Shown: positions 4,080 to 60,266 of the stretch, one piece after another
Layout: every line of letters starts with the position of its first letter
Position numbering within the stretch: the first letter of the stretch is position 1
IMG/VR virus record: IMGVR_UViG_3300031825_000369
Length of the DNA: 64,000 nucleotides
Direction: 5' to 3' (one strand)
Source of the DNA: a virus
Program-made: the position numbers and the translations under genes
The notes under the pieces: model-generated
Database searches by the model: none
What the model was told of the DNA's origin: nothing
The model's input: the letters and a program-made list of their open reading frames with translations, nothing else

Positions 4080-4082
4080 GCG

Positions 4083-41332: not shown

Positions 41333-41575
41333 ATGAGCGCCCCGCGCTGGTTTTATCTGGTGCTGGCTGCGTGCGCCGTGACCCTCACGGCCGCGGCGGT
41401 AATGCGAATGCGGTACGCGCCGGCCACGGATGCGTACTTCGATGCGTACCGCCGGGCGATTTGCACCGCGCACACGTGCACCCCGCTCGCCCGCGACGTC
41501 GTCCCGCTGGAAGAGTTCCACAAGCGCGACCAGCTACGCCGCTCGGCCTACGACTCATTGCCGTTTCGTCCGTAG
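41333..41575 (+). CDS. Small N-terminally membrane-anchored protein, 80 aa (superinfection-exclusion candidate)
   Basis: MSAPRWFYLVLAACAVTLTAAAVM TM segment; antisense to the flanking operons; upstream TTTACA-18-CATGCT ends 7 nt before the ATG. Confidence 0.6.
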   Translation: MSAPRWFYLVLAACAVTLTAAAVMRMRYAPATDAYFDAYRRAICTAHTCTPLARDVVPLEEFHKRDQLRRSAYDSLPFRP

Positions 41576-43423
41576 CGTCTTCGCGCGCACCGGCTGACGC
41601 GCGTTCGCCCGGATCGTCCCGATCACGTTCTCCAACCAGAGGCGCCGCTCGTCGTCGGACATCGCGGCGTACTCGGCGTCGCCGACCATCGCGGCGAGCG
41701 CCTGCATTGTCTCCCGTCCAGCGTCCCGCACGAACGCCTCGTAGTCCGCGCGCGCGATCGGCGTGCTCCGCCCCCCTTCCCGCATCGTCCGCGACGGCAT
41801 CCCGATGGAGACGCCGAGCCGGCGGAGCTCGGTCAGCACCGGCGAGTCGCTGGCCCGCCGCATTGGGAACGGGCTCGCGACGGCCGCGACCCGCTCCGCC
41901 GTCGACTTCCGCACGAACTCGCCCGTCGGGGCCTGAGCCTTCGGGAGCGCGAACGACCCGCCGGGGACCCGCGAGAGCACGCGCTCGCCTAACGTGCGGG
42001 CGTCCCGCGCGTACGGGTCCGCGGCGCGGGTGGCCTGGCCGAGCACCGCCGGCACCGGGATCTGGCTCACCAGGAGCGACGACGCGGCCCGCTCGTCGCC
42101 GAACGCATCGATGAGGCGTTTGACGCCGTCCAGGTAGCTCTGCTCGGTCAGGACATGCCCCGCCGCGAGGGCCCCGCGCACCGCCTGCTCCGGCACCCCC
42201 GCGTCCGGCTCTTCGTCGCGGATGCGAGCGAGCTGCGCGCCCATGAACAGTGGGACCGACGCGGGCCCGAGCGACAGTAGGCCGACCCAGTGATCGCCGA
42301 GGCGCACGGCGAAGGGAATGCGCCCGTCGGCCCGCCACTGGGCGCGCTCCTTCGCGTCCTCCGGCATCGGCCCGGTGATGCGCCCCTCCTTGTAGAGCGC
42401 GAGCCCGGCCGCCCACATTGCGGTCCCAACGCCGGCCGTCGCGAGCGCGCGCGCCCGTTGCGCCTGGTTCCCCAGCACGTTCGGCGACAGGAGCCCGAGC
42501 GGCGAGACGGCCGCCATCTTGTACGCGACCGACGACGGCACACCGACGAACGGGAGGTTTTGCTCGAGCATCACCGTCCCGACCTGCGCGCCCCGTTGCT
42601 TGGCGCGCTGCGCCGCCTGCGCGTAGGGCGAGGCCGCGGGATCCGGCTCGGTGTCGGCGAGTCGCCGCGTCGCCTGTTTCGCGCCGGTCGCGAGTTTCGA
42701 GAGGAGGTTGCGGTCCTTGAACGTCGCGTAATGCGCGTCGTCCGTCGCGCGCGCGAGCATCTCCTCGGTCGGATGCTCGAAGTATTGCCGCGCACGGGCC
42801 GCGCGTTCCGCCCCCGTCGCCCCCTCGCGGATCGCCAGCAGCTTGGACTGCATATAGATCGATCCGTCGAACGCCGCGCGCCAGAACGGGCGGTCCGCCG
42901 CTTCGAGCACCGCGAACGCGCCATCGACGAGCGTCTGCGTCACCGGGCTCGCGTACTTCACCCGCTCGACGTCGAGCACGTTGGTAATCGCCTCGGCGTC
43001 GAGCCGCGCCGAGAGCTCCTGGACGAAGTTGCGGACCCGCTGGCCGATCGGCTGGCCGGCCGTCGCCGCGTACGCGCCGCGGACCGGCGCCGTCCCCTGC
43101 TTGAACCCCCGCCACATCGCACCCACCCCGTCGGCGTCGAGGGCGTTCGCGACCTCGCGCAGCTCGCGAGGTTTCACGCGAAACCCCGTGCGCGCGGAGC
43201 GCCCGAGCGAGAGCAGGTAATCGACCCCCGCCTCGGCCGGCTGCAGCACGAGCGCGCGCATCCCGCCCCATGACGTGTTGCCCGCGACCGCTCGCATCGG
43301 CGTCACGAGCGAGCCCACGAACCCGGCCTTGATGGCGGTCGTGGCCTTCTCGGTGCCGGAGACGGTGCGGATCTCCGCGACGAACCGCGCGAGCTTGATC
43401 CTCGCCAGCGCGCAGGCGCTCAT
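41555..43423 (-). CDS. Large internal virion/polyvalent protein C-terminal part (LPD38-like), 622 aa
   Basis: GGAGG RBS plus ATGA overlap at 43423; SYLDGVKRLIDAF...QATRAADPYARD...LSRVPG...LP....TGE pattern. Confidence 0.7.
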   Translation of the reverse strand: MSACALARIKLARFVAEIRTVSGTEKATTAIKAGFVGSLVTPMRAVAGNTSWGGMRALVLQPAEAGVDYLLSLGRSARTGFRVKPRELREVANALDADGVGAMWRGFKQGTAPVRGAYAATAGQPIGQRVRNFVQELSARLDAEAITNVLDVERVKYASPVTQTLVDGAFAVLEAADRPFWRAAFDGSIYMQSKLLAIREGATGAERAARARQYFEHPTEEMLARATDDAHYATFKDRNLLSKLATGAKQATRRLADTEPDPAASPYAQAAQRAKQRGAQVGTVMLEQNLPFVGVPSSVAYKMAAVSPLGLLSPNVLGNQAQRARALATAGVGTAMWAAGLALYKEGRITGPMPEDAKERAQWRADGRIPFAVRLGDHWVGLLSLGPASVPLFMGAQLARIRDEEPDAGVPEQAVRGALAAGHVLTEQSYLDGVKRLIDAFGDERAASSLLVSQIPVPAVLGQATRAADPYARDARTLGERVLSRVPGGSFALPKAQAPTGEFVRKSTAERVAAVASPFPMRRASDSPVLTELRRLGVSIGMPSRTMREGGRSTPIARADYEAFVRDAGRETMQALAAMVGDAEYAAMSDDERRLWLENVIGTIRANARQPVRAKTLRTKRQ

Positions 43424-46400
43424 CCCCCACCTCCACACGTTTCGGCCGCTTCACGGGCCAGCCGCCGGATCTCCAGCATCACCGCATCCGGGAGCGGGCG
43501 GTCGCCCGCGAGCTTCTTTGCCTGCACGATCCACAGGTCCGGGTCGAGGGAGCGATGGGCCAGGTCGCGGTAGTAGCCGAGCGACCGCCCGGCCTGCGCC
43601 CGTTCGCGCACGATCGCCGACAGCGCCTCGTCGGTCTGCCGGGAGGCTTCGTCGATCACCCGTTGCGCGCGGGTCAAGTCGTCGCCGGAGAGCTCGCCCG
43701 AGTTGAGGGCGCGCGACGCCGCTTCCATCGCCGCGGTGTTCTCGCGGACGATGTCGTGCAGGGCCGCGACCTGATACCCGTCGAGCCGCTGCAGCTTGGC
43801 CTGGTCGATCTCCAACGGGTTGGCGACCAGCTTGCGCCGGAACTCGTCGCGGAGCGCGCGCTGCGCGTCGAACGACTGGTAGCCACGCTGCGCCTTGAGC
43901 TCGTCGACCCGCGCCTCCACCCGCGCGGCGACGGAGCGCGCGATCGGCGATTGCTCGCCGAGGTACGCTTTCCAGTTGGTCGTGACGTCGGCCGCCGGCT
44001 CCATCGGGGGCCGCGGTTCTGGAGTAGCGCCTGACGGTGCGGCGTCCTGTCCAGCATCTCCAAATTTAGATATGCTCGCCTCAGGCGCCGCCGGCTCCTC
44101 TTCCCCGAACCCGAAGAACGAGTCGTCCGCGTCCGCGAGCTCGTCGGCCGCCCGCATCGCGTCACGCTCGAGTGATTCCTTGAGCCGGTTGGCGTGGATC
44201 ACCCCGTCAGCGATCGAGTCGTCGGAGTGGCCGCGCGACTTGAGCACCGCATCGATGCGTTCCTGGATGCGCTTGTAGTCCTCGAGGTTCTGCAGCGCCT
44301 TCGCTTGGCTCGAGACTTTCCCTTTGCCCGTCGAGACCTGGACCGTGACGGACTGGTCATCGTCGAATGCCGAGCGGTACTGCGCGCGGCGCGTCGCGTC
44401 GGCGACCTTCTCCTGCAGTTCGTCGAGTTCGCGGAACAGTCCCTCATCCGAGACCGATTCCGGGTTGCGCAGCTTCCCGCCTTCGGTGCGCGCTTCCGAG
44501 AACAGTGGCACCTCGCGGCCCGCGCGCTTCGGTCGGAGGTCGGCCCCGGGCGGTTCAGTCCCGCCGAAGCTGACGGGCTCGCCGATCACCGGCGGCGCGT
44601 TGCCCGCAGGGGGCTCCGCCCGTATATTTGCTGTAGAGCCAGTCGGTTCGGCAGGCGCAACTCCGGGAGTAGTCATCCGGCCCGTTCCGCCTTCGCCTGA
44701 GCCGACTGGCTCAAATTTTGTCAGCTGATGATCGTAGTGGAGGCGCCCCGCACTCGTCTCCCGCGCCACGATCTCGACGTGGTAGTCCCTCTCGCCGATG
44801 CGCAGGTAATTCTCGAAACGCAGATAGGCCGGGACTGATCGGGCTTTGGCGGCGTCGCGGTTCGCCTCCGACCCCAGGAACCGCGCGCCCTCGATCAGCT
44901 CCGGCAGCGCATAGACCGCCTGGAGCTTCTCGACGCTGGCACGCGGTTGCAGGGACTCTTTGAGGCCGGTCGTCGAGAATCCGATTTCCCATCCCGTCTC
45001 TCGATTGAGCACCCGGCGCGGATGGAGATGCGTCCTCGCCCACTCGCGCGTGGCCGCGTACCATCGGTGCGCTGGCCCGACTCGGTCGTTCACGACCTCG
45101 TCGCCGGCAATGTGCGGGTACTCTACCTCTCGGTCGCCGACGAACTGGCGCGCGGTACGCACCTGCCCAGGCGGGAGTTGCGCCGGTCCACTGACCGATT
45201 CTGGTGCCGGACGCCGCCCGACCTTCTTGGTGTACTCGGCGATGTCCGACACGCGCGACGAGTAGCGCGGCGCGTCTTCGGGCGAGACGCCGAACACCGA
45301 CACGGGCTGGGACTGCGGCGACTCGACCGGCGGCCGCCACGGCGACGACGGCCCTTCCGTTGGCGTCGGCGGGTTGCGCCGCGCCTCGAGTGCGGCGAGT
45401 CGGGCCGCCCCCTCGTCGCGCGAGATGCGGCGAACGCCCGACTTCGGCACCGCCGGCGCCTCACTCACCGCGGCCGGAGACGGACCCTCGACGCCTTCGA
45501 GCGAGTAGGTCTCGTAGGCGCGGTCCGCCGGCGGCTTCGGGACCCGCGGCGCTTCCGGCGGGAGGTCCGCCCCAACCACGCGCGGCGCCTCCTCGCGGAG
45601 TGCGTCGGTGAGCTCGCGGTAGAGGTCCGCGTACGTCGCCTCGGCCCGCGCGATGTCCTTGCCGAGCGCGAGCCGCGGCACCTTCCCCGCCCCGGCGGGC
45701 CGGCGGGCCGGTGCCATCGCGGGGGCCGCGCGCCCCGGTGCCGGTCCCTTCGCTTCGCGCGCCACGTCGTCGAACGCGCGCACGAACCCCTCGGAGACGT
45801 CCGTGGTGCGCGCGGCGATCGCGCGACTCGTGGCGCCCGTGGCCTTTCCGGCCCCCCTTATCGTGCGGTCGAGCGTGGCGCCCATGAGTGCGCCTAACGC
45901 GGGATCGTCCGGCGACTGCACGGCGCCGAACCCGGCCGCCGCGGCGAGCGGACCCACGACCCGCGACGCCAGCGGGAACGCCGCGTTGGCCACCGTACCG
46001 ACCGCGTCACGCCCCAACTGTTCGCGCGAGATCGCGCCGGGCGTGTCGCGGGTAATTGCCTGCCCAGGCCGCAGTCCGCCGGGAAGCGCGCCGACCTTCC
46101 CGAGCGTGTAATCCCCCTCGGCCACCCGCCCACCCTCGACGGGTGCCGTGAAGAAGCGCACCGGGGCCATGACGACCGCATCCGCGATGGCCTCGGCCGT
46201 CTCCTTCGGATGCGTGACCATCTGTTTTATCGCCGTGCCGTAGCGCTTCAGGAGCGGTGGGCGGTCGGCGGTGTCCTCCTCTAGGAGATCCGAGTATGCC
46301 GCATCCGCGGTCAGCAGATCAGCGTACGGGTCTATGTCACTGGCGCGCGGTCGGATCTCCGGCCGCTGGCCCCGGCGCCTAACGCGACTCGAGTCGGGAC

Positions 46401-46440
46401 GGGTCGGTGCTTGGCCTCCCCCTTTTTCGTTCCCGGTCAC
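43420..46440 (-). CDS. Large DNA-ejection/polyvalent protein with an LPD3-like domain, 1006 aa
   Basis: Internal domain (about 44709-45065): VLNRETGWEIGFSTTGLKE...KLQAVYALPELIEGA...FENYLRIGERDYHVEIVARE...HYDH. Confidence 0.75.
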   Translation of the reverse strand: MTGNEKGGGQAPTRPDSSRVRRRGQRPEIRPRASDIDPYADLLTADAAYSDLLEEDTADRPPLLKRYGTAIKQMVTHPKETAEAIADAVVMAPVRFFTAPVEGGRVAEGDYTLGKVGALPGGLRPGQAITRDTPGAISREQLGRDAVGTVANAAFPLASRVVGPLAAAAGFGAVQSPDDPALGALMGATLDRTIRGAGKATGATSRAIAARTTDVSEGFVRAFDDVAREAKGPAPGRAAPAMAPARRPAGAGKVPRLALGKDIARAEATYADLYRELTDALREEAPRVVGADLPPEAPRVPKPPADRAYETYSLEGVEGPSPAAVSEAPAVPKSGVRRISRDEGAARLAALEARRNPPTPTEGPSSPWRPPVESPQSQPVSVFGVSPEDAPRYSSRVSDIAEYTKKVGRRPAPESVSGPAQLPPGQVRTARQFVGDREVEYPHIAGDEVVNDRVGPAHRWYAATREWARTHLHPRRVLNRETGWEIGFSTTGLKESLQPRASVEKLQAVYALPELIEGARFLGSEANRDAAKARSVPAYLRFENYLRIGERDYHVEIVARETSAGRLHYDHQLTKFEPVGSGEGGTGRMTTPGVAPAEPTGSTANIRAEPPAGNAPPVIGEPVSFGGTEPPGADLRPKRAGREVPLFSEARTEGGKLRNPESVSDEGLFRELDELQEKVADATRRAQYRSAFDDDQSVTVQVSTGKGKVSSQAKALQNLEDYKRIQERIDAVLKSRGHSDDSIADGVIHANRLKESLERDAMRAADELADADDSFFGFGEEEPAAPEASISKFGDAGQDAAPSGATPEPRPPMEPAADVTTNWKAYLGEQSPIARSVAARVEARVDELKAQRGYQSFDAQRALRDEFRRKLVANPLEIDQAKLQRLDGYQVAALHDIVRENTAAMEAASRALNSGELSGDDLTRAQRVIDEASRQTDEALSAIVRERAQAGRSLGYYRDLAHRSLDPDLWIVQAKKLAGDRPLPDAVMLEIRRLAREAAETCGGGG

Positions 46441-47174
46441 GGCGTGCCCGTGCGTTCCTTGAATCTCTGCGTCGCGATCGCCTTCCGCCGTTCCTTCTCG
46501 GCGTCGGGGATCGGGAGCGCCTCGATCTTCTCGAGGGCCCGCTCGTACGCGGCGCGCTCCGGGTCGACGGGCTCGGCGCCGAGATTGATGTTACCGGCCG
46601 CCCCGCCGGGCGCGGCCGACGTGCCCTGGCCCGTAATCGCGTCCCACTCTTCGGCGGCCTTCCGCGCCGCGTCGGCAGGCGCGAGCCCGGGTGCGAGGAG
46701 ACTCGTCTTGGGGTCGCGTTGCGGCTTCGTGAGCTCAGGGACTCGGCCCGCGATGTACCGCTGTCGCGCGTCCTCGCGCGGCGGCCGCGGCGCGCGGTTC
46801 CGTGCGGTCTCCGTGATCCGGTCCCGCGCTTCGACACGCTGATTCGTCGACCGTAGATTCTCCAGGTCGATCCGATCGCGCTGCGCCTGGTCGCGCGCGG
46901 CGCGCGACTCGTCGCGGCGGAGCATCCGCTCCATGGACTCCGCCGTCACGCGGCGCTGAGCTTCCTCCTTCCGGAACGCGAACTCGTCGTCCTCACGCTG
47001 CTGCTGCCGGCGCACGAGCGACTCGGCGAGGATGTCCTTTTGCCGCTGGCGCTCCGCCTCGGCCGCCTGCGCCTCGCGTTGCCGCCGCAGCTCCTCGCCC
47101 TGCATCCGGCCTTGCATGCCCTTCGCGAGCACGCCCGGGGCCGCGCGGAACAGCGCGCCTAAGAGTCCGGCCAT
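46437..47174 (-). CDS. Copy 2 of 1914-2651 (internal virion protein)
   Basis: Identical translation at +44523. Confidence 0.65.
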   Translation of the reverse strand: MAGLLGALFRAAPGVLAKGMQGRMQGEELRRQREAQAAEAERQRQKDILAESLVRRQQQREDDEFAFRKEEAQRRVTAESMERMLRRDESRAARDQAQRDRIDLENLRSTNQRVEARDRITETARNRAPRPPREDARQRYIAGRVPELTKPQRDPKTSLLAPGLAPADAARKAAEEWDAITGQGTSAAPGGAAGNINLGAEPVDPERAAYERALEKIEALPIPDAEKERRKAIATQRFKERTGTP

Positions 47175-47177
47175 GGC

Positions 47178-48602
47178 TTATCTCGTCGGGAGGAGGTCAC
47201 GGACGGACGGCGGGGCGACGTAGGGAACCGCCGTCCCGCCGCCCCCGTTTGCGCTGCGTTGCATGAGGAACTGCGCGAGCAGATCCCCGACGCCTTGCAT
47301 CGCCGCCTCGCCCTGCGCCGAGTACTCGCGGCCCGACTGCGCGAGCGTGCTGGTCGGATCGTAGGCGCTCCCGATCCGAAACGCGTCGTTCATCTGGTCG
47401 CGCTGGCGCCCGTACGCGCGATCGAGCAGGTCCTCCCCCATGGCGCGCTCGCGCACCCGGTTGTTGATGGCGTCCTGATCGAGGCCGTACTGGTACGCGC
47501 GCTCGCCGCGGAGTTCGTCGCGGTCGGTGCGCTCGCTGCCGCTCACGCCTTGCTCGTAGCCGAACAGCGAGCCGAGGCGCGACTGTTCGCGCGCGAAGCC
47601 GCGGTCCCCAAGGTCATCGGCGTAATTCCGCTCGCCGACCGTATCGCCGTAGCTGTCGCGCTCGCGCCCGTAGAGGTCGCGCCCGAGCGTCAGCAGGTTG
47701 CCGAATTGCTCCTGGTTCGCGCGCGCGGCGTTGCCCGCGTACCCGGCCCCGATGCTCCCCACCGTGCCCATCACGTCGCGCGCGGCGCCGAGCTGCGCCA
47801 ACCGATCGTCAAGCGTCTGCCCGGCGGATTCGGTCGCGAGCTGCCGCCGCGCGAGGTCGAGCTCGCGCTCGCGCTGGAGCTGCACGTCGCCGAGTTCGGA
47901 CGTGGTCATCCCCGCGCCGATCCGGCCGAGCGCGGCCGCCCGGGACCCGACGTCGCGCATCTCCTTCTCGAAGCCCGGGCGCGAGCGCTCGAGGAGGAGG
48001 TCGTAGGCGTCGCCCGCGAGCTTCCCGCGGTCCGGGCCCGCCATCACCGCGTCCAAAGCACTCTTGACTTGCGTGTTGAGCCCGCCGATCGCGCCGTCGA
48101 ACGGCGACCCGCCACCGCCCCCCCCGCCCTGCTGGGCCATCTTCAGGAGCTGGTCGTAGACGCCCTGGCTCTGCCCGGTGTTGGCCGGGCCGACCGCGCG
48201 GTATTGCATCCCCGGGAGATTCGCGAGCTGCTGCGCCGCCTGGGTGCTCATGCCTTGCGCGCCGGCGAGACGCTGCGACGCCTGCGGGGTGAACTGCTGC
48301 CCGATGAGACTGTTGCCCGGGCCGAACGACTGGCCCGGCTGCATGTTCGGCCCCCCCGTGCCGCCGCCCGCGCCGCCCTGCGGGATGAACGGTCCGCCGG
48401 TCTGCCCGCCCCCATACGGATTGACCGGTCCACCGGGCGCCACCGGTGACGGGGGCCTCGGCCCGGGAGTCGGCGACGACCACACCGGGAGGGTCGGGCG
48501 CGTCGGGAGCGGGGTCGGGTTCGGGCGCGGGGCCTGCGTCGCCTGGCGGATGATGGAGGCAGGCGGCCGCGCCTGCTCGTCGGTCGTCGCGTAGCTGATC
48601 AT
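47178..48602 (-). CDS. Copy 2 of 2655-4079 (DNA transfer protein)
   Basis: Identical translation. Confidence 0.7.
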   Translation of the reverse strand: MISYATTDEQARPPASIIRQATQAPRPNPTPLPTRPTLPVWSSPTPGPRPPSPVAPGGPVNPYGGGQTGGPFIPQGGAGGGTGGPNMQPGQSFGPGNSLIGQQFTPQASQRLAGAQGMSTQAAQQLANLPGMQYRAVGPANTGQSQGVYDQLLKMAQQGGGGGGGSPFDGAIGGLNTQVKSALDAVMAGPDRGKLAGDAYDLLLERSRPGFEKEMRDVGSRAAALGRIGAGMTTSELGDVQLQRERELDLARRQLATESAGQTLDDRLAQLGAARDVMGTVGSIGAGYAGNAARANQEQFGNLLTLGRDLYGRERDSYGDTVGERNYADDLGDRGFAREQSRLGSLFGYEQGVSGSERTDRDELRGERAYQYGLDQDAINNRVRERAMGEDLLDRAYGRQRDQMNDAFRIGSAYDPTSTLAQSGREYSAQGEAAMQGVGDLLAQFLMQRSANGGGGTAVPYVAPPSVRDLLPTR

Positions 48603-48605
48603 GCG

Positions 48606-49343
48606 TCACCGGTTCGCGAAGGGATTCTCACTGCGGAAGAGCGCGGACAGGTCTTCGCGCGGCGGGGGGGCTTGCAGGGCGAGCATCCGCGCGCGGTCCC
48701 GGAGCGGCGCCCCCGCCTGGTACTCCGCCATGGCGATGTCGGACGCCTGGTTGCGCAGCTGGTCGCCGCGCCGTGCGTCCTTGGCGCTCTGCATGGCGCC
48801 GAGCGCCCCGACGCCGAGTTGCGCGACGTCGCCCCAGGGAATCTTGCTCAGCATGCCGCCCGCTCCACCGCCCCCGCCGAAGATGCTCGACAGCCCGCCG
48901 CCGCCACCGCTCGCCGCCGGTGCGCCACCGCCCGCGAGCAGGCTCGTCGCCGCGCCCTTCGCGCCGCCCGTCGCGTAGCCGGTGCCGGCCCGGAGCGCCG
49001 CGTCCTTGACACCATTCCCGATGACCTGCTGGCCGGCCTGCTTGAGCCCGGCCTTCAACCCCTGACTCGCGATCGTCTTGATGCCGCCGCCGACCGCGCC
49101 GCCGACGCCACCGAGCGCCGCCCCGCTGGCCGCGCCGCCGAGCGCGTTCTTGAAGGCGTTGCCGCCCTTCTTCGTGGCCCCAGCGATCGCCCCGCCGAGC
49201 GCCGCGCCGGCCACGTTGCCAATGCCGGGGATCATCGTGCCCAGGATCGGCAGCGCGATCGGCGCCGCCTTCTGCGCGACCTTGCCGAGCGGCCGGGTGA
49301 CGTTTTTCTCGATCTTGCGTAAGCCCTTCGATAGCCAGGAAAT
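48606..49343 (-). CDS. Copy 2 of 4083-4820 (pilot-like protein, ATT start)
   Basis: Identical sequence. Confidence 0.7.
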   Translation of the reverse strand: MSWLSKGLRKIEKNVTRPLGKVAQKAAPIALPILGTMIPGIGNVAGAALGGAIAGATKKGGNAFKNALGGAASGAALGGVGGAVGGGIKTIASQGLKAGLKQAGQQVIGNGVKDAALRAGTGYATGGAKGAATSLLAGGGAPAASGGGGGLSSIFGGGGGAGGMLSKIPWGDVAQLGVGALGAMQSAKDARRGDQLRNQASDIAMAEYQAGAPLRDRARMLALQAPPPREDLSALFRSENPFANR

Positions 49344-49357
49344 TGTCGTATCCCCCG

Positions 49358-50233
49358 TTAGGGTAGGGTGAACAGCATCCCCGCGCTGCCCGCCTTCGTG
49401 GTGACGTTGTCGCCCACGGCCGAGGACTCCGAGGCGTGCTGGACTTGCAGCGTGCCGGCGTTCGCGCCGGTCCGCAGGATGCCCGTCACGCGCGCGACGA
49501 GCGACACCGCCGAGGCCGGCGACGCGAGCGGCGACACGCGATCCCCGCTCGAGGTGCCGTACCCGACAAACGCCGCCCCCGCGCTGTCGCTGTTCGCCGG
49601 GATCGTCGCCGTGTAGGCGATCGTGGCCCCCGCCGGACAGGTCAGCGCGAGTTGATACCCGACGCTGACATTCGACGTCAGAAACAGGAGATAGAACTCG
49701 AACGCGTACTCCGTGTTGGCCGCGACCGCGAGACTCAGCCCCGTCACGTCCGTGAGCGCCGTGGAGCCCGTGGCATTCCCCACCGGGCCGACGTCGCTCC
49801 CGATCTTCACCGAGGCTTGGGTGCTGGGCGCGCTCGGCGTGTAACTCGGCAGGATCACCCACCCGTAGGTCGCGGGCGTGGCGCTCAGGACCGCCTGCAG
49901 CTGGTGCGTCTCGTGCTGCGTGGCCCACGCGAGCGTCGCCGCCCCGTCGATCGCCTGGCCCCCGGTGCCCTGGAGCGTCACCGTGTTGGCGCCCGCGTTC
50001 GTTTTCTTCGCGGTGAAGCGGCGCCCCAGCACCGTGCTGGCGTCGGGGAGCGTCAGCACCACCGCGCCCCCGGTCGTGTCGACGAGCAGCAGTTCGTCGG
50101 AGTCGACGACGGTGACCGACGCGGTGACGAGTCGCGCGGCGTAAGTGCCGGGCTGCGCCGCGATGTCGCGTTGCCACCGCCGGAGCGTGTCCTCCGGCTT
50201 CTCGCCGGACACGACCGTGAGTTTCGGCGCCAT
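49358..50233 (-). CDS. Copy 2 of 4835-5710 (fibre-like protein)
   Basis: Identical translation. Confidence 0.7.
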   Translation of the reverse strand: MAPKLTVVSGEKPEDTLRRWQRDIAAQPGTYAARLVTASVTVVDSDELLLVDTTGGAVVLTLPDASTVLGRRFTAKKTNAGANTVTLQGTGGQAIDGAATLAWATQHETHQLQAVLSATPATYGWVILPSYTPSAPSTQASVKIGSDVGPVGNATGSTALTDVTGLSLAVAANTEYAFEFYLLFLTSNVSVGYQLALTCPAGATIAYTATIPANSDSAGAAFVGYGTSSGDRVSPLASPASAVSLVARVTGILRTGANAGTLQVQHASESSAVGDNVTTKAGSAGMLFTLP

Positions 50234-50442
50234 TAGGGGACCGTCTCCGGCGCATCCGTGACGTCGAGCACGATCTCGTTGCTATCGGTGTCGATCGCTT
50301 GCAGGTGCCCCGCCGTTATGCCCGCGCCGGCCACCACGACCGCCACCGCGTCCGCGAACCGCCGCGCCGCGGCTTCCGCTTCGCGTTGTCGCTCCAGCAC
50401 CATCGCGATCTGCGCGGGGTGCGCTTTCACTCGCTGCATCAT
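50233..50442 (-). CDS. Copy 2 of 5710-5919
   Basis: Identical translation. Confidence 0.55.
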   Translation of the reverse strand: MMQRVKAHPAQIAMVLERQREAEAAARRFADAVAVVVAGAGITAGHLQAIDTDSNEIVLDVTDAPETVP

Positions 50443-51026
50443 GGGGTGCTGTCCTCCACCCAGGCCGAGGCCCAGGAGCCGGTCCCGGAGAAGCGTTCGT
50501 GCCGCGCGCGGAGTGAGCCGCCCGCGACGCCGCCGGCGAGGATGATTTCCGCCGACGGGACGCCGTCGCTGACGAACGTGTTGTCGGACAGCACCGCCCC
50601 GCCGCCATCGCGGAACTGATAGCGGGTCGTGCAGAACGTTTCGCTCGGGGTGACGGTCCCGCCGTAGGCCCCGCCGCCCAGGTCTCGGAAGTCGACCCCT
50701 GCCGGCGCGGCAGGCGGGTTGATGAATGGGTCCGGCGTCGACACCGGCGCCCACTCCGACGCCACGCCCTGCCGCTCCAGCCGCACGCGGTAGCTCCCGG
50801 CTTCGGTGTACCCAACGATGTCGACGCTGAACGACGTGCCGCTCGCGCTCCCGGTCCCGAACGCCGACCAGACGCCGGAGCCGGGCGCCGATTCCTTCTC
50901 GACCCGCACCGTCAGCGGGCCCGGATTCCCGGCCGTGTTCCCGGTGAACCGCGTCGAGCTCTCCCACTGCGAGGCGAGGAGCCCCGTGGGCTTGGCGACG
51001 TGCGTGCCGTGCATCATCCCGAACAT
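50439..51026 (-). CDS. Copy 2 of 5916-6503 (Fn3-like protein)
   Basis: Identical translation. Confidence 0.6.
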   Translation of the reverse strand: MFGMMHGTHVAKPTGLLASQWESSTRFTGNTAGNPGPLTVRVEKESAPGSGVWSAFGTGSASGTSFSVDIVGYTEAGSYRVRLERQGVASEWAPVSTPDPFINPPAAPAGVDFRDLGGGAYGGTVTPSETFCTTRYQFRDGGGAVLSDNTFVSDGVPSAEIILAGGVAGGSLRARHERFSGTGSWASAWVEDSTP

Positions 51027-51031
51027 GCGCG

Positions 51032-51727
51032 TTAGGCCGTGTAGTTGGCGCCGACCATCGCGCCGAAGTAGGTCGCGCCGTCGTAGTAGAGCGCGATCAG
51101 GTCGACCTTGCTCGCCGTCGTCGTGAGCGTCGGCGCCGTGCCGCCCGACCAGTGCACCGCCGCCGGCCAGGTGATCGTCCGCGAGCCCGTGGCGTCCTGC
51201 GCGATCCGCAACAGGTAGTGCGCCCCCGCCTGCGGGTTCGAGAGCGTGAGCGTGCAATTCGCCGTCAGGGTCAGCTTTTGGGAGTTCCCGCTATTCCAGT
51301 CGATCGTCTTCGCCGCACCGCTGTTCCCGGCGTCGACTTGCGCGCTGTACCCCTGCCCGGCCGCGAGCGCGAGGTTCCCGGCCGTGACCGCGATTCCACC
51401 AGCCACGACCGACACGCCGCCGGCTTGCACGCTGATGCCGCCGCTCGCGACCGTCAGCCCGGTGATCCCGCCTAACGTGCCGGTGATCGTGCTGTTGCCG
51501 GTGACCGTGATCCCGCCGGCCGACACCGTGATCCCGCCCGTCGAGACCGTGATCCCGACGCCCGCGCCCGGCGTGAAGGTCAGGTTCGCCGTGACGGTGC
51601 GGGCCACGTCGGTAAACAGCGCGTAGCTGTTCACCGTCGTCCGGATCGTGTCGAAGTTCTGGTTGACCTGGGCCGACTGGATGGTCGTCCCGGAGGAGAA
51701 CGCGGTCAGGGCGCTGATGAGTGGCAT
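51032..51727 (-). CDS. Copy 2 of 6509-7204 (fibre adaptor)
   Basis: Identical translation. Confidence 0.8.
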   Translation of the reverse strand: MPLISALTAFSSGTTIQSAQVNQNFDTIRTTVNSYALFTDVARTVTANLTFTPGAGVGITVSTGGITVSAGGITVTGNSTITGTLGGITGLTVASGGISVQAGGVSVVAGGIAVTAGNLALAAGQGYSAQVDAGNSGAAKTIDWNSGNSQKLTLTANCTLTLSNPQAGAHYLLRIAQDATGSRTITWPAAVHWSGGTAPTLTTTASKVDLIALYYDGATYFGAMVGANYTA

Positions 51728-51731
51728 GGCG

Positions 51732-53372
51732 TTAGTAAGTCGAGGGGCGTTCGTCGAGCGGCGCGGCCACCGCCGAGACCTGCTGGAGCTGCCACCGCTC
51801 CCCGAGCTCGGCGTGCGTGAGCTCCACTTCGAGCCAGCGGCCCGTCACCTGCCGCAAGCCGGCCGGGAGATGCCGCTCCCCGAGCTCGGTCCCCCACGTG
51901 GCTTGGTCCCACAGCGACACGTCCCACCGCGCGTCCGAGCCCGACGAGGTGACGGAGAGCGGCGTCGCGAGCGGCCAGGTCCCGCGCGGCGTCGCGACGG
52001 TCACGGACACGCCGGTCAGCGTCGTGGGAATGCGGAGCGTCGTATCGAGCCGCGTCCAATGCTTGTCGAGCGCGACGGTGGCGCCCAGGTGGCCCGTCCG
52101 GACGGTGTGCTGGATCGCCACCGCGCCCGCGGCGAAGCCGTCATCCCAGACGTTCCCGGTCGGGACGTCGTGCCAGTAGCAATACCCCTCGTCCACCGTG
52201 GCCGACGTCGAGCCCCCGCCGTGCACGAGCCGCCGCTCGCCGGCCGCGTTCTTCGCCGTCGCCAGCACCGTCGATTGCCAGCCGCGCCAGACGCCTTCAC
52301 AGAGCCCGGTCTTGGGGTTGCACACCACATACGCGTTCGGCTCGTCGTAGCCCGTCTCGGCCACGCCGACGACCACCCGCTCGCCCTGCGGCTCGCCGTC
52401 CCAGAGCGCGATCTCCGCGCGCTCGAACTTGAGCGGGTTGAGCGCCGTCAGGGCGTTCCGCGCCCCGATCCCGACTTCCTCGAGCGCCACGCCGCGCGCC
52501 CGCATGACGCGCCGGTCCGAGGAGAGGAAGTACACATCCTGATCGACCACCATCACGGCCGCGGGCGAGCGACAGCCCACGTGCTCCGAGACCGCCTCGC
52601 GCGTGCCGCTCGAGCGAAAGTCCGTCGTGACTTCGCCGGTCACGAGCGTGACGCTGTTCTGGCGGAACAGGTAAATCGCGTCGTTGGTCGCGGCCCCGGC
52701 GAAGAACGGCGCCGCGTTGGTCTGGCGCAGCGTCCAGGCGTTGTTGTACCCGCCGGCCTCATAGCCGGTGTTGGGCGTCGCGGGCTCGGACCAGACGATC
52801 GTCGTGCGCTCGGTGCTCTTGATCCCGAACAGCTGGCCGTAGTACACCCAGGGCGCGCCGTAGAGCACCGGCGCGTTCGTGAGCTTCGTCAGGCCCGCGC
52901 CCGCGGTGCCGTCCCACGCGAACGGCGTGTTGACGCCGTCCGAGATCACCAGCAGGTCGGCGAAGTTGACGGCGTACACCTTCGCGCTCGCCGACAGCGT
53001 GATGGCGGAGCCCGCGAGGTTCGCGGTCGTGAGGACCTTGGTCCACGCGTCGCCGCCCCAGTCGTAGGTGTAGACTTCGCCCCCCACGACCGCGACCGTG
53101 TACTCGGTGCCGTTGACCTTCGTGAACTGCGCAACCCGCTGGACCGCGCGCGCGCCGACGCTCCCGAGCTGCGCGCCCATCTGGCTAAAGCCCGGGCGCC
53201 CTTCGACCATTGGGGTCTCGGTGTCGGCGTCGCGGATCCAACAATTCACGAGGCGCCCGGCCGCGTCGCCGCGGTTGTCGGCCGACTGGTCGCGATCGTG
53301 CTGCCGGACCGGCGGGCCCCAGTCGTAGCGCCGCGAGCGGGCCGCCGCGGCCACGTAGGCGCGCGCCGTCAT
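51732..53372 (-). CDS. Copy 2 of 7209-8849 (nozzle protein)
   Basis: Identical translation. Confidence 0.75.
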   Translation of the reverse strand: MTARAYVAAAARSRRYDWGPPVRQHDRDQSADNRGDAAGRLVNCWIRDADTETPMVEGRPGFSQMGAQLGSVGARAVQRVAQFTKVNGTEYTVAVVGGEVYTYDWGGDAWTKVLTTANLAGSAITLSASAKVYAVNFADLLVISDGVNTPFAWDGTAGAGLTKLTNAPVLYGAPWVYYGQLFGIKSTERTTIVWSEPATPNTGYEAGGYNNAWTLRQTNAAPFFAGAATNDAIYLFRQNSVTLVTGEVTTDFRSSGTREAVSEHVGCRSPAAVMVVDQDVYFLSSDRRVMRARGVALEEVGIGARNALTALNPLKFERAEIALWDGEPQGERVVVGVAETGYDEPNAYVVCNPKTGLCEGVWRGWQSTVLATAKNAAGERRLVHGGGSTSATVDEGYCYWHDVPTGNVWDDGFAAGAVAIQHTVRTGHLGATVALDKHWTRLDTTLRIPTTLTGVSVTVATPRGTWPLATPLSVTSSGSDARWDVSLWDQATWGTELGERHLPAGLRQVTGRWLEVELTHAELGERWQLQQVSAVAAPLDERPSTY

Positions 53373-53382
53373 CGGTGGCGCC

Positions 53383-54060
53383 TCATCGGAGCGGCCCCCG
53401 CCACCAGAAGCGCGACGTCCCGAGCGCATACGCCGGGTCCGAGCCCTGCCCGAACATCTGGCCCTTCAAGCTGCCGATGATCCCGGTGTCGCCGGGGTTC
53501 ATCGGGTCGCCCCAGCACGTGTGCTGGAACAGCTGCAGGAAGGGCGAGGGGTCACGCAGCCCGCCCTGCCGCGCCCACTCGGCCACGGCGTCGTACACGA
53601 GGAGGATGCGCGCCGGCTCCGGCTGCAGGGTGGGCTCGACCGACGCCGAGATCGACACCGGCTGACGGACGTACCGCGTGTAGAGCGTGTCGGCGAAGGT
53701 CTGGGTGCGGCCGTTGGGCATGCGGATCCGGTTCCCCTCGAACACGAAGTCCGCGTGCGGCGAGAAGTCCGCGCCGGGGATCAGGATGCGGCCACTGCGC
53801 CCGACCCGGATCTCGGCTTCGCCGAGCGGCCAGTCCGAATTCGGGAACGTGTAGGTGGCGCCGCCGTCTGCCGTCGACATCGCGGCCGGCGCCGTCATGA
53901 GGACGTGCGGGACGTGCGACGCGAAGAGCCGCGTCACCTTCTGCTGCGCGTTCGAGAGCAGCTGGTACCACTGCGCATCGCTCGTGACGTCGCCCTGCGT
54001 CGGCTCCTGGGCGGTGTCCTTGCAGCGCTGGAGGATGTCGGCAGAATCCCAATCGCTCAT
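53383..54060 (-). CDS. Copy 2 of 8860-9537 (adaptor)
   Basis: Identical translation. Confidence 0.7.
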   Translation of the reverse strand: MSDWDSADILQRCKDTAQEPTQGDVTSDAQWYQLLSNAQQKVTRLFASHVPHVLMTAPAAMSTADGGATYTFPNSDWPLGEAEIRVGRSGRILIPGADFSPHADFVFEGNRIRMPNGRTQTFADTLYTRYVRQPVSISASVEPTLQPEPARILLVYDAVAEWARQGGLRDPSPFLQLFQHTCWGDPMNPGDTGIIGSLKGQMFGQGSDPAYALGTSRFWWRGPLR

Positions 54061-54064
54061 CGCG

Positions 54065-54265
54065 CTAGCCTCGCAGCCCGACGAACCGGCGGCCGCGGCG
54101 CCGCCGCGTGGTCGGCGTGCCCGGCGCGGGCGGGTCGCCCGCGGTGGCGTAGGGATACACGCCCGCGAGCTGCCGCCGGTCCGGGACGCTCGCGAGCGAG
54201 CCATCGGGCGGAGGCGCGTAGACCTCCGCCACGAATCGGCGCTTCTGTTCCGTGTCGATCGCCAT
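54065..54265 (-). CDS. Copy 2 of 9542-9742
   Basis: Identical translation. Confidence 0.6.
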   Translation of the reverse strand: MAIDTEQKRRFVAEVYAPPPDGSLASVPDRRQLAGVYPYATAGDPPAPGTPTTRRRRGRRFVGLRG

Positions 54266-54276
54266 AGGGGCCGCCG

Positions 54277-55041
54277 TTAGGCGTCGGCTCCGCGGGTGAA
54301 GGTGGTCGCGTCATCCGTCAGGGCCGCGGTCCCGAGCGCCGTCACGCCGTCCGCCTTGAACAGCGTGTCGGTCGTCGCCGTCACGGTGCGCTTGTGGCGG
54401 AACCGCTGGTAGAGGTAGCGGACCATCTTCGGCAGCGTCTGCGCGCCGGTCGACGGGAGCGCCGCGAGCTCCGCCTCGGTCGCGAACGCCGCGTCGGTGA
54501 TGGCCGCGGCCGCGATCGCCCCGACGCTCGCATCGATGCGCCCGCTCACGAGCGCCGCCGGCAACCGGGTCTGGATGTCGTTGGTGTCGGCGACGATCGC
54601 CGCGAGCTGGGTCGAGTTGCTGTCGATCTCGGTCCGGACGGCCGCCGCCGTCACGCCCGCCGCGAGCGGGTCGTAGCCCGCCAGCGCGATCGTCACGCCG
54701 TCGTCGACGGTGTTGGCCCCGGTCCACGAGATCACGACCTCATCGACGCCCGTCGCGAGCGCCGCGTTCGGGAGGTCGAGCCGGTAGAGGCCCGGCGCGT
54801 TGGTGGCGTCGACCTCGACGAAGCCGCCCGTCGCCCACGCGCCCGTGACGGTCTGGGTGGCCAGCGTGATGGCCGCCGCGGCCGCGCCCGCGCGCGTGTA
54901 GTAGACCTTGAGCCCCGCCGTGCCGAACGCGAGCCCGGTGAGGCCCATCCCGACCGGCGTGGTCGCCGAGCCGCGGATGAAGACGTAGATCGTCTTGCTG
55001 GTCGCGTCCTTCGCTAGCACTCGTGACATGAGGAGTCCCAT
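54277..55041 (-). CDS. Copy 2 of 9754-10518
   Basis: Identical translation. Confidence 0.65.
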   Translation of the reverse strand: MGLLMSRVLAKDATSKTIYVFIRGSATTPVGMGLTGLAFGTAGLKVYYTRAGAAAAAITLATQTVTGAWATGGFVEVDATNAPGLYRLDLPNAALATGVDEVVISWTGANTVDDGVTIALAGYDPLAAGVTAAAVRTEIDSNSTQLAAIVADTNDIQTRLPAALVSGRIDASVGAIAAAAITDAAFATEAELAALPSTGAQTLPKMVRYLYQRFRHKRTVTATTDTLFKADGVTALGTAALTDDATTFTRGADA

Positions 55042-55057
55042 GGAGGCCGAAGAGAGA

Positions 55058-56119
55058 TTACCCGGAGAATCCGCCCGCCAACTGGCGGAGAAGGAGCGGG
55101 TGCCACGCCGACCCGCCACCCCCGCCAGTGGATCCTTGCTCGTCGGCGCCGATGTCCCACGCCGCGCCCACCGGCCGTGCGAAGCCGTTGCCGTCGATCG
55201 CGAACTGGAATTGCGGCGCGCCGACCGCCGAGAGGTTGGTCCCGAGCTCCTTCGCAACGGTGTCGCCGCTCTGGAGCCGGAAGTTTCCGACCGTGGCGTC
55301 CACGAAGGACGCGGTGATCGACGCGGCCCACGCGTTGGTCGCCGGGTCGTCGGTCGTGGCGTTGAGGGTCGTGATGCCGTTCATCACGCGCTGCATGAGC
55401 GCGTTCTTGATCCGCGCGACTGCGTTCGTCGCCCCACCCGCGAACTTCGCCCAGATCGCTTCGCCCTCGTCGCCCTTCAGGCCCACGATCGTCGGGTTGT
55501 AGATGACGATGGTGGAGTTCGACGGCGTCGCCTGGAAGATGATGCCGTCGGTGAAGTTCCAGGTGACCACGTTGCGGAACACGAAGGTGCCGGCCTTCCC
55601 GTTCGCGTCGAAGGCAAAGCCACCAATGGAGCTGACATTGCTGACGCGCCGCATCTTCACGCCGTCGAGGTACAGCTCCCCGCCGAGCGACAAGACACTC
55701 AGCCCGTGATTCCCTGGGTCAAGCGTCGTGTTTGAGTGGTAGAACTGAACGCCGGTGACGCGGATCGAATTGGTGTTGATCGTGAAGACCGGGCCGCCGT
55801 TCGACGTGCGTTCGAGCGTGTACACGGCGTCGTCCCACGCGACTTTGCGATCCGCGCTCGGCACCGAGAAGTGCACGTAGCGAGTCGTGTCGCTGGTCGG
55901 CCACGTGGTGCCCGGCGTCGTCGTGTCGTTGGTCGCGCCCGAGCACTCGACGTTGACCTGCACGTCGGCGGCAACGAGCCCGGTCGGGTACGCGGCCAGC
56001 AGCGCGGTGCGGACTTCCTCCATCGACGCCCAGGCGCGGTTCGCGCCCGCGGTCGCGTTGGTCGTCCCGTCGCCGCCCGCCGTCGAGCCGGTGTTGAGGA
56101 AGCGGTTGACGACGGTCAC
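55058..56119 (-). CDS. Copy 2 of 10535-11596 (beta-helix protein)
   Basis: Identical translation. Confidence 0.7.
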   Translation of the reverse strand: MTVVNRFLNTGSTAGGDGTTNATAGANRAWASMEEVRTALLAAYPTGLVAADVQVNVECSGATNDTTTPGTTWPTSDTTRYVHFSVPSADRKVAWDDAVYTLERTSNGGPVFTINTNSIRVTGVQFYHSNTTLDPGNHGLSVLSLGGELYLDGVKMRRVSNVSSIGGFAFDANGKAGTFVFRNVVTWNFTDGIIFQATPSNSTIVIYNPTIVGLKGDEGEAIWAKFAGGATNAVARIKNALMQRVMNGITTLNATTDDPATNAWAASITASFVDATVGNFRLQSGDTVAKELGTNLSAVGAPQFQFAIDGNGFARPVGAAWDIGADEQGSTGGGGGSAWHPLLLRQLAGGFSG

Positions 56120-56360
56120 GACGCCCCCCCGTTCGCCACTGGTGTCACGTTTCTCGACATTGACAACGCACCGTCAGGCGCGGAACGTAGTGTGCGAGGC
56201 GGGAGCCCACGGCAGTCACACCCCGGCACAGGGATCGACAGATGAGACGCATCGGAGGCGGCGCGGCCGCGGTGCTGGCCCTCGTGGTGGCGGTGACGAT
56301 CGTGTACCCGGCGGTGACCCTCTGGTCGATCATCAGAGGCGAGGGCGAGCCGTAGCCCAC

Positions 56361-58271
56361 TCACGGCGCGACCCCCGCCGTCGCCATCTCCACGGTGTCC
56401 AGGTCGCACCCCGGATCGGCGCCACCCAAGCCGATGCCCTTGCCCGGACTCGTCACCGCGAGGCGGTAGTTGTGGCTCGCGGCGTCCACGAAGTCGGCGT
56501 CAGCCAGCACCGCCGCGAGCGTAGGGCTCACGCCCGCGTCCGGGTACACGTTGCCGTCGCCCTGCGGGAGCAGGTTGGTGTACTGCCCTTCGAGCCCGAC
56601 CAGGAAGTTGCGCTTGAAACTCCAGCCCGTGGCGTATTTGTTGAGCCCCGCCACGCCGACGAAGCCACCCGAGTAGAAGAAGCTGCTGTTGTCGCTGTTC
56701 GTCGTGCTCGCGTTGTCCGAGATGTCGAACCCCGTCGCTTCCTGCCCGGCCGGCACCGCGTCCGACACCGCCCACGCCGCGATGAGGTTCACGTTATGCA
56801 CGAACGTGTTGAACCGGATCTTGAGGGCGTTCGTCGGGTTGACGAGCAGCAGCGCGTTCCCCGACTGACTTATGGTACCGGACGGCGCCCCGTTGGCGGT
56901 GACGATGCCGATGTCGTGGAACAGGTTGTGGTAGCACGCCACGCTGTGACACGGCTCTATGTCCGTTTCAATCGGGTCCCCGTACCCGCTCACGTTGAAG
57001 GCCATGCGCGCGCTCCGCGTGAGGTTGTAGCGGAACGTGACGTGGGAGGTCCCGAGCCCCGTCGATGCGCCCATGCCGTCGCCCGCGCTCTTGATCACGG
57101 TGGCCATCCCGTTCTGTGCGCCAGACGGGCAACGTTCGAGGACATTGCCCTCGAACAGCACGCGCTTCGCGTTCTTCAACTCGAACAGGCCCTTCATCGC
57201 GTACTTCGTGGCCCCGGCGTTCTCGGCGGGACACCACGCCTCGGGGTGCGCCAGATAATTGCGCCGCAACTCGAGGTCGCTCGGCTTCCCGTTCGCGGCC
57301 CCGAGCCCCGGCATGGCGCCGCCGAAGAACAACGGCACCGACCCACCGTCGATGTAGTTGTTCACGATTTTCAACGGCCCCGGCGTGTTCCACGCGGCCA
57401 CGCCGTGCGTCTCGTCGCTCGCGTTGTACTGGCCGGCCACCCACGAGTCCACGAGCGCGCCGCGAATCGCTTCGAGCGTGACCCCGTTCTTGTTGCGCCC
57501 CTGCGGTGTGCCGTCGCCCGCGAGCCCGGTGTCACCCACCGGTCCCGTCACCAGAATCCGGTCGAGCACGATGTCGCGCGGGCAGTGTTCGAGCAGCGAC
57601 TGCGACTGCTCGTCGAGCAGGGCCGGCTCGCGGGCGTGGATGCGCACCGTGAAGTAGATGACCCCCGTCGCCGTCGGCTCCGGCACGTTCGTGACGCCCA
57701 TGACCCGATAGCGGTCCGCCCCGCGGCGACACGCAATCGTCGGGTTGTCGTTCCCGACCGCATGGAGCACCGGCGCGTTGGTCATCGTCGCCGGCGTGCA
57801 GCGGATGCCTTCCGCGCACGGCGCCGTCTCGGCCTCGATGTCGGTCCAGACGTTCGGGAAGGTGTGCGGCAGGAGCCACATGGTCCCCTGGTACGTCAGC
57901 CCCATCGCGAGCCGGATGCGCGTGTCGCCGTTGGTCGCCGCGCACGTCACGATCTCGGCGTTCACCGCGTCCATGTTCGCCGTCGGCGACCCCTGGTCGG
58001 TGATGAGGGTATCACGCACGTATGTGCGCGACCCCTTCGCCGAGGTCACCCACGCCTGCGGCAAGTCGATCGTCGCGCCCAGGTCGAACGGGTGCGGGGC
58101 CGGGTTGTACGTCTCCGTGCTGAGCGCGGCGGGCGATGAGAACCCACCACCGCCGCCCGGTGCCGCCGTCGCCAGTCGCGCCTGCCCGTTGGCGTGCGCC
58201 GCGGCGATGAGGAACACGCCAAGCAGGAAGCGCCGCATCGAGCGGTCCATGGTCCGACGGAGGCGCTTCAC
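56361..58271 (-). CDS. Copy 2 of 11838-13748 (beta-helix protein)
   Basis: Identical translation. Confidence 0.8.
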   Translation of the reverse strand: MKRLRRTMDRSMRRFLLGVFLIAAAHANGQARLATAAPGGGGGFSSPAALSTETYNPAPHPFDLGATIDLPQAWVTSAKGSRTYVRDTLITDQGSPTANMDAVNAEIVTCAATNGDTRIRLAMGLTYQGTMWLLPHTFPNVWTDIEAETAPCAEGIRCTPATMTNAPVLHAVGNDNPTIACRRGADRYRVMGVTNVPEPTATGVIYFTVRIHAREPALLDEQSQSLLEHCPRDIVLDRILVTGPVGDTGLAGDGTPQGRNKNGVTLEAIRGALVDSWVAGQYNASDETHGVAAWNTPGPLKIVNNYIDGGSVPLFFGGAMPGLGAANGKPSDLELRRNYLAHPEAWCPAENAGATKYAMKGLFELKNAKRVLFEGNVLERCPSGAQNGMATVIKSAGDGMGASTGLGTSHVTFRYNLTRSARMAFNVSGYGDPIETDIEPCHSVACYHNLFHDIGIVTANGAPSGTISQSGNALLLVNPTNALKIRFNTFVHNVNLIAAWAVSDAVPAGQEATGFDISDNASTTNSDNSSFFYSGGFVGVAGLNKYATGWSFKRNFLVGLEGQYTNLLPQGDGNVYPDAGVSPTLAAVLADADFVDAASHNYRLAVTSPGKGIGLGGADPGCDLDTVEMATAGVAP

Positions 58272-59214: not shown

Positions 59215-59233
59215 GGGAGGGTTCGGTTAGGCG

Positions 59234-60182: not shown

Positions 60183-60266
60183 GGAATCGGAATCGTTAGG
60201 GTCCGGATGCGGAGCGGGGCACCGGCATCGGTGCCCCGCTCACACAGTCAGTCATCGGCCGAAGGC

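Follow-up and report, generated by a model that had tools for sequence, protein, structure and literature searches.

A conserved two-gene form of a probable polyvalent ejection protein with paired lone cysteines at the break

The viral record IMGVR_UViG_3300031825_000369 of IMG/VR is represented here by a stretch of 64,000 nucleotides (the window), which carries on its minus strand two adjoining late genes, ORF1 and ORF2 (ORF, open reading frame), encoding 1006 and 622 amino acids (aa). A sequence-only reading of the window took this pair for a split polyvalent protein, delivered with the virion and carrying an LPD3-like insert. The analysis reported below supports that reading overall: the LPD3 match is strong, the architecture varies among relatives and the pair is colinear with fused relatives, while delivery in the virion is the part that we infer.

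Results

The gene pair and its junction

The two genes and the junction between them are as follows.

43420..46440, minus strand: ORF1, 1006 aa, GTG start; the cargo-carrying N-terminal half, with one cysteine.
41555..43423, minus strand: ORF2, 622 aa, ATG at 43423-43421; a conserved, mostly helical body.
43420..43434, minus strand: coupling junction; GGAGG within glycine codons of ORF1, then an ATGA stop/start overlap.

The junction reads TGT GGA GGT GGG GGA TGA, with GGAGG at 43434-43430 and the last glycine codon supplying the A of the ORF2 start codon ATG, which agrees with the proposal that GGAGG and ATGA join the 1006-aa and 622-aa genes. At its other end ORF1 overlaps an upstream 245-aa gene as GTGA. 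ORF1 and ORF2 would be made together through termination-reinitiation coupling, with the ribosome-binding site lying inside the terminal glycine codons of ORF1.

The junctions of the split relatives described below are ATGA (this phage and locus L005), TGATG (L001), TAATG (L006) and TAA followed directly by ATG (L007 and L009). Close coupling is the feature common to these junctions, and the relative frames differ. A programmed frameshift or readthrough yielding a fused product was considered and rejected because the downstream starts lie in differing frames, including in frame after a TAA; furthermore, the run of G at the junction is not a canonical slippery heptamer.

Modular architecture of ORF1

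Relatives of ORF1 were collected with phmmer from 1.84 billion representative proteins (390 hits) and its modules were delimited by BLASTP from the best 150 of these. From the N- to the C-terminus the modules are as listed.

45691..46332, minus strand: module A, residues 37-250; conserved N-terminal module, with BLASTP matches to 29 relatives that also carry module D.
45121..45690, minus strand: linker 1, residues 251-440; Pro/Ala-rich, the upstream edge of the cargo slot.
44716..45120, minus strand: LPD3 cargo domain, residues 441-575; Pfam match at residues 463-569, that is 44734-45054.
44506..44715, minus strand: linker 2, residues 576-645; Pro/Gly-rich, holding the wrap point described below.
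44071..44505, minus strand: module C, residues 646-790; helical, common to many relatives, in some of them without module D.
43423..43950, minus strand: module D, residues 831-1006; conserved C-terminal module, contiguous with the ORF2-like part in fused relatives.

The LPD3-like domain that had been placed at 44709-45065 is confirmed by the match to Pfam LPD3 (PF18798), which has an E value of 1.3e-21 and 77.4 bits against a cut-off of 27, and covers model positions 9-114 of 114. Pfam finds neither LPD38 nor any other LPD beyond LPD3 in ORF1 or ORF2. The low-complexity linkers expected around the domain are evident in the composition, which is 15% Pro and 16% Ala in residues 225-440 and 19% Pro and 19% Gly in residues 576-645. 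The unassigned second helical domain seen at 44170-44480 corresponds to module C, which recurs in relatives. A hydropathy scan shows a moderately hydrophobic segment in module A at residues 150-174. The claim of locally AT-richer codons in the LPD3 block stands in part: its GC content is indeed lower, at 65.7% compared with 72-75% in modules A and D and linker 1, but most of the drop falls at codon position 2 and so follows amino-acid composition, with GC at third codon positions (GC3) only slightly lower (0.81, compared with 0.85-0.92 elsewhere).

A 44,523-bp unit, wrapped around or concatenated, makes up the window, positions 1-19477 being identical to 44524-64000 with zero mismatch over 19,477 bases, and the wrap point (44523|44524) lies inside ORF1 between codons 639 and 640. 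The continuity of ORF1 across this point is nevertheless real and not an artefact of the join, because 29 database relatives hold module A and module C/D in a single protein, in the same order as ORF1, and GC3 stays high (0.69-0.86) across the join. The exact ORF2 sequence is also listed in the database on a contig of 629,717 bp, which is about 14 units of 44,523 bp; hence the source record may be a long concatemer and not a circle.

Split and fused relatives

Homologues were checked for fusion of the two halves, and single-chain relatives were found. The longer proteins retrieved with ORF2 are fused forms of 1,329-2,566 aa, and in P0141, P0153, P0156, P0129, P0151 and P0003 (handles of individual relatives) a single chain holds modules A and D together with the ORF2-like part, with a gap of only 1-8 residues between module D and the latter. 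This bears out the impression that the helical sequence reads continuously across the ORF1/ORF2 break.

A scan of metagenomes for the ORF2-like module gave 56 loci. In every readable low-GC locus (46 of 46, at 33-50% GC) the module is inside one ORF of about 1,000-1,900 aa, and all high-GC loci are split, with a module-D gene followed by a separate ORF2-like gene of 620-640 aa. Among the best 150 representatives, 109 of the 115 module-D proteins end exactly where ORF1 ends and five are fused. Given these two distributions, the split is an old and conserved state of a high-GC clade, as opposed to recent damage, and it probably arose once within this family.

The sole relative found in a named genome is a prophage-like locus on a contig of a Gemmatimonadaceae metagenome-assembled genome (L001, 8795-12462), which has the same split pair, of 603 aa and 618 aa, with the TGATG junction. 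None of 17 tested neighbouring genes of the window has a match at this locus, so that the ORF1/ORF2 pair appears to move between phages as a unit of its own.

Cysteines at the break

Each protein of the pair contains a single cysteine, next to the break.

43435..43437, minus strand: Cys1002 codon, the only cysteine of ORF1 and the fifth residue from its C-terminus.
43412..43414, minus strand: Cys4 codon, the only cysteine of ORF2.

The family alignments show no variation at C1002 or C4, and ORF1 and ORF2 together contain no further cysteine in their 1,628 residues, where about 15 cysteines would be expected from the 0.91% cysteine of the other ORFs of the phage (P ~4e-7). The pattern extends to the relatives. 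Exactly one cysteine, always within the last 8 residues, is present in 109 of 110 split-type relatives of ORF1 (79,390 residues in total). The sole split-type relative lacking the terminal cysteine is P0094 (864 aa), in which the match stops about 20 residues before the usual end, and which may be truncated. On the ORF2 side, all 28 relatives have a cysteine at positions 4-23, with no further cysteine in 26 of them. In contrast, fused forms mostly have no cysteine at all (33 of 34 metagenome ORFs and 13 of 14 representatives, 46 of 48 in total). Such a sharp contrast between split and fused relatives is unusual, and a bond of this kind is seen in a solved structure from another phage, A4.

In the cryo-electron microscopy structure of the cyanopodophage A4 pre-ejectosome, gp27 reaches into gp26 with its C-terminal helix, and the two proteins are joined by a Cys1715-Cys5 disulfide (PMC12002296; PDB 9K2V, 9K3A). 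The genes for gp27 (1717 aa) and gp26 (1114 aa) are consecutive in the A-4L genome, and C1715 and C5 are the sole cysteines of the respective proteins. Like ORF1 and ORF2, these late genes follow one another and encode internal virion proteins that are large and mostly helical, and the placement of the lone cysteines is closely similar, the upstream one being 3 residues from the C-terminus in A4 and 5 here, and the downstream one at position 5 in A4 and 4 here. Unlike this arrangement, the sequences themselves show no detectable homology (BLASTP E above 0.4; hhalign 0.5%), and the A4 chains were not retrieved by the structure model of ORF2. Because the same arrangement occurs in this unrelated pair, where the bond has been seen, a C1002-C4 bond is likewise probable here and would restore the continuity lost by the split. 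The halves would then be re-joined end to end via C1002 and C4, most likely by a disulfide formed in the virion.

ORF2 and gp16-class internal virion proteins

ORF2 has no Pfam family. It matches PHROG 6651, annotated as internal virion protein, with an E value of 3e-11, and tblastn with ORF2 hits proteins with this annotation in Desulfovibrio phage ProddE and in T7-like cyanophages (cyanopodoviruses). A profile of the ORF2 family built from 28 relatives aligns with internal virion protein D (IVP-D) of ProddE over 397 columns, with an hhalign probability of 98.9% and an E value of 4e-17. The aligned part is residues 784-1231 of the 1268-aa ProddE protein, namely its C-terminal ~450 residues. 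ProddE is a phage of the Autographiviridae, and its IVP-D gene (CPT_ProddE_034) is situated between that for IVP-C and the tail fibre gene, which is the position of T7 gp16. The structure model of ORF2 is confident, with a predicted local distance difference test score (pLDDT) of 84 and a predicted template modelling score (pTM) of 0.81, and moderately hydrophobic segments are located by hydropathy scan at residues 326-344 and 380-399.

In combined size ORF1 and ORF2 are similar to gp16-class proteins, and both are helical with moderately hydrophobic segments. T7 gp15 and gp16 and P22 gp7, gp20 and gp16 contain no cysteine, as is the case for the pair away from the break. T7 gp16 carries an SLT transglycosylase, and so does one fused relative of the pair. 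The differences from T7 are that the head genes here are P22-like, that an internal cargo other than a peptidoglycan hydrolase is present, and that no similarity to T7 gp16 was found. A tape-measure protein was also considered as an identity for the pair and was rejected on account of the P22-like portal, the position at the end of the late operon beside the lysis genes, and the matches to internal virion proteins.

Variable cargo in the relatives

The spacing between modules A and D ranges from 26 to 718 residues in the relatives having both, and one relative (P0011, 642 aa) has the two modules with essentially no insert between them. Among the best 150 representatives, no protein with the C-terminal module D carries LPD3, the other LPD3 hits being unrelated large or small proteins. 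On these grounds of sequence comparison, the LPD3 block is cargo in a variable slot of ORF1.

The other occupants are varied. Pfam cargo among 55 ORF1 relatives comprises GGDEF in six, GNAT in two, and LPD3, ddrB-ParB and ART-PolyVal in one each. SNase and GNAT are present in fused proteins retrieved with ORF2, and in the 34 fused metagenome ORFs the cargo is HNH (3-4), ART-PolyVal (2), SLT (1), GNAT (1) and the non-specific endonuclease domain Endonuclea_NS_2 (1). LPD3 also occurs together with GGDEF and the ORF2-like body in one chain (P0067, 1778 aa) and with the body in P0150. Hence the suggestion of a platform with swappable domains is well founded, given the GGDEF, GNAT, ART-PolyVal, ddrB-ParB, SNase, HNH, SLT and LPD3 domains of the relatives; an LPD match is present and the architecture is not invariant. 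GGDEF, GNAT and ART domains need cytoplasmic cofactors such as guanosine triphosphate (GTP), acetyl coenzyme A (acetyl-CoA) and nicotinamide adenine dinucleotide (NAD). Since most of the cargo enzymes have such a need, the slot is implied to end in the host cytoplasm.

The LPD3 domain

Pfam LPD3 also matches all 10 of 10 aligned relatives of the domain. The structure model of residues 430-625 has an alpha+beta core with pLDDT 85-96 and finds its counterparts in BFVD among the LPD3 domains of phage polyvalent proteins, with E values down to 4e-11. A near-invariant Y-D-H is present on the last strand of the LPD3 alignment, and LPD3-carrying proteins are cysteine-poor (0.11% Cys), which fits injected proteins. 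A word-indexed search for stand-alone LPD3 relatives gave no match. An LPD3-like stretch with 38% identity to residues 463-574 of ORF1 was observed in Achromobacter phage CF418P1 (OQ817832.1, 13628-13963), under a gene annotated as 'putative portal'.

The sequence-only reading had stated that LPD3 was previously proposed to be nuclease-like. This was not borne out, as Iyer et al. 2017 (PMC5512222) make no such proposal; they describe the functions of LPDs as elusive and do not include LPD3 among the seven LPDs that are possibly enzymatic.

The phage and neighbouring genes

The genes of the phage include a P22-like portal, a large terminase, an integrase, replication genes and, immediately downstream of the pair, an endolysin-like gene, from which we conclude that this is a temperate, short-tailed phage of 44.5 kb. 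The ORF1/ORF2 pair forms the end of the late operon and adjoins the lysis genes. No close phage relative was found: a megablast comparison of the region with 50,697 phage records gave zero matches. A scan of viral_contigs with the ORF1 family likewise gave no match.

Directly upstream of ORF1 are two genes on the minus strand, 46437-47174 and 47178-48602, whose 245-aa and 474-aa products have zero cysteines. In size they are near P22 gp7 (229 aa) and gp20 (471 aa), with no sequence similarity detected. Because they are cysteine-free and of these sizes, they are likely to be further ejection proteins. The next gene (48606-50255, minus strand) encodes 549 aa with three cysteines and shows a weak match to P22 gp16 (residues 301-392 against 90-186, 32% identity, E 5e-4 in a single comparison).

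Discussion

Collectively, our data make it probable that ORF1 and ORF2 are the halves of one ejection protein of the gp16 position that carries an LPD3 cargo and is re-joined through its lone cysteines; the packaging, the ejection, the disulfide and an activity of LPD3 are what we infer. In the model that we propose, ORF2 would be the conserved body and ORF1 the carrier, with conserved N- and C-terminal modules flanking a linker-bounded slot for LPD3 and module C. The ORF1-ORF2 complex would be packaged inside the head and ejected alongside the DNA, such that a few copies of LPD3 might reach the host before phage gene expression.

Several observations weigh against this interpretation. The relationship to ProddE IVP-D is confined to ORF2, the ORF1 family showing none in profile comparison. 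The ORF2 family has no detectable similarity by hhalign to T7 gp16 (0.3%), P22 gp16 (3%) or A4 gp26 (0.5%). Foldseek and VIA-align find no solved relative of the ORF2 model in a library expected to hold the T7 and A4 ejection structures, and their rows for this model are generic helical hairpins only, with Z up to 6.5. The association of splitting with cysteines is probably one evolutionary event in this family, so that its backing comes from conservation and from the unrelated A4 case, and not from many independent events. The cytoplasm is reducing and does not permit a disulfide; the C1002-C4 bond could therefore arise only in the capsid or following lysis. Finally, Pfam shows no zincin-like or other peptidase family in ORF1 or ORF2 at E up to 1, and the pair thus contains no protease domain to release the cargo. 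Searches of PDB sequences and profiles with ORF1, ORF2 and three alignments also gave no match. Internal virion proteins commonly diverge beyond recognition (PMC8954989).

Alternative explanations of the gene pair itself and of its cysteines deserve comparison with this model. The pair might be a broken gene or an assembly artefact, arising from a recent nonsense or frameshift mutation or from an ORF created by joined contig ends, in keeping with the wrap point inside ORF1 and an overlap that falls on a G run in the -1 frame. We consider this highly improbable, as the split is kept down to ~30% identity with four junction geometries whose frames differ, ORF2 is equipped with an ATG and a GGAGG of its own, single proteins of relatives span the wrap point with modules A and C/D, and GC3 is 0.81-0.92 in all modules. 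If the split is genuine, the terminal cysteines could still serve some purpose other than an ORF1-ORF2 link, such as binding metal, carrying a modification or pairing with the same cysteine of a neighbouring subunit. Lone cysteines without an obvious partner do exist in outer-membrane ejection proteins, at position 2 of both the T7 gene 14 product (L003:729-1319) and ProddE IVP-B (L002:3796-4413). However, in the present family cysteines flank the break site only in the split forms and are absent from the fused ones, and the same geometry is a hetero-disulfide in phage A4; a purpose of this other kind therefore seems distinctly unlikely to us.

For the LPD3 domain there are two further candidates, both of which we regard as unlikely, and to a similar degree. 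It might be a structural or docking domain of the NTF2/VirB8-like type, with a part in building a conduit across the envelope or in fixing the carrier to the capsid core. Foldseek of the LPD3 model against the PDB gives nothing at E 0.001 or better, and its weak rows are NTF2 or cystatin-like folds; VIA-align lists the type IV secretion scaffolds DotI, TraM, IcmL, CagV and VirB8 at Z 2.6-4.2; LPD3 is not counted among the possibly enzymatic LPDs (PMC5512222); and the related stretch in phage CF418P1 lies under a putative portal gene. All of these Z scores are, however, below the noise level stated for VIA-align, the slot in relatives holds GGDEF, GNAT and ART, enzymes that require cofactors of the cytoplasm, the domain is absent from nearly all family members and hence not needed for assembly, and the polar Y-D-H is kept nearly invariant. 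The other candidate is a divergent, metal-independent ribonuclease (RNase) of the BECR (barnase-EndoU-colicin-RelE) fold, which would cut host RNA on entry. The top VIA-align rows for the model are the CdiA-CT toxins 6cp9 (Z 4.8, root-mean-square deviation 3.5, 91 aligned) and 7m5f (Z 4.6), with many further rows for BrnT, RelE, YoeB, ParE, MqsR, colicin D/E5 and Nsp15; a language-model search, with LPD3 clusters skipped, gives PBECR3 clusters at 0.85, and the Y-D-H on the last strand would fit as well. Against this, a Z below 5 and an atlas score below 0.9 are both leads only by the tools' own marks, no Pfam PBECR family is found in any of the 11 LPD3 proteins searched at a threshold as loose as E 10, a search of PDB sequences by profile gave no match, and the histidine of the second common LPD3 motif is a proline in the ORF1 copy. 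Hence a nuclease role for LPD3 is weakly suggested.

The pair can be placed among the polyvalent proteins of phages and conjugative elements defined by Iyer, Burroughs, Anand, de Souza and Aravind (2017, PMC5512222). Both are encoded by phages in the virion gene block, LPD3 is common to both, and action at entry is predicted for them as for ORF1/ORF2. Relatives of ORF1 carry the hallmark domains ART-PolyVal, ddrB-ParB, GGDEF and GNAT in changing combinations, and ORF1 itself combines several unrelated domains (A, LPD3, C and D) in a variable architecture. The pair differs from the described polyvalent proteins in that ORF1 has one named domain only and no zincin-like processing peptidase, a frequent though not constant component of that class, and in that it is split in two; furthermore, its ejection-protein scaffold is not discussed in that work, where gp16, internal virion proteins and ejection are unmentioned. 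A closer parallel in function is gp47 of the Stx phage phi24B, which contains LPD5, LPD1, LPD38 and MuF-C, was detected in virions by proteomics and has been proposed to be an ejection protein (bioRxiv 10.64898/2026.04.10.717836). It shares with ORF1/ORF2 its large size, polyvalent character and proposed ejection role, but it is a single chain of 2811 aa with different LPDs and a peptidase, and tblastn with ORF2 missed it. A cargo-bearing polyvalent ejection protein is thus an already published kind; the new part is the conserved two-gene form with paired lone cysteines.

Based on the cysteine pattern, we put forward a tentative and rather doubtful extension of the model, in which the coupling is redox-switched. 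In the virion, which is oxidised, the C1002-C4 tie would make carrier and body leave the capsid as a single thread, and in the reducing cytoplasm of the host the bond would open and free the LPD3 half without a protease. The extension also contains a general rule, that ejection proteins are cysteine-free and that a cysteine pair is installed wherever one is cut in two; the present family and cyanophage A4 are unrelated lineages that agree with it.

Injected phage proteins act before any phage gene expression, and they are therefore prime candidates for first-strike counter-defence; to our knowledge, very few of them have been characterised. The locus described here is a compact and well-delimited carrier with a defined cargo slot, and its relatives form a natural series in which the slot holds different enzymes, so that the idea of a platform can be tested. 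The cysteine pattern suggests a way in which cargo might be released without a protease. It also offers a simple sequence rule, in which the lack of cysteine marks ejected proteins and paired terminal cysteines mark products that travel as a unit. If this rule is true, it would allow better annotation of many unnamed genes in the late operons of podoviruses.

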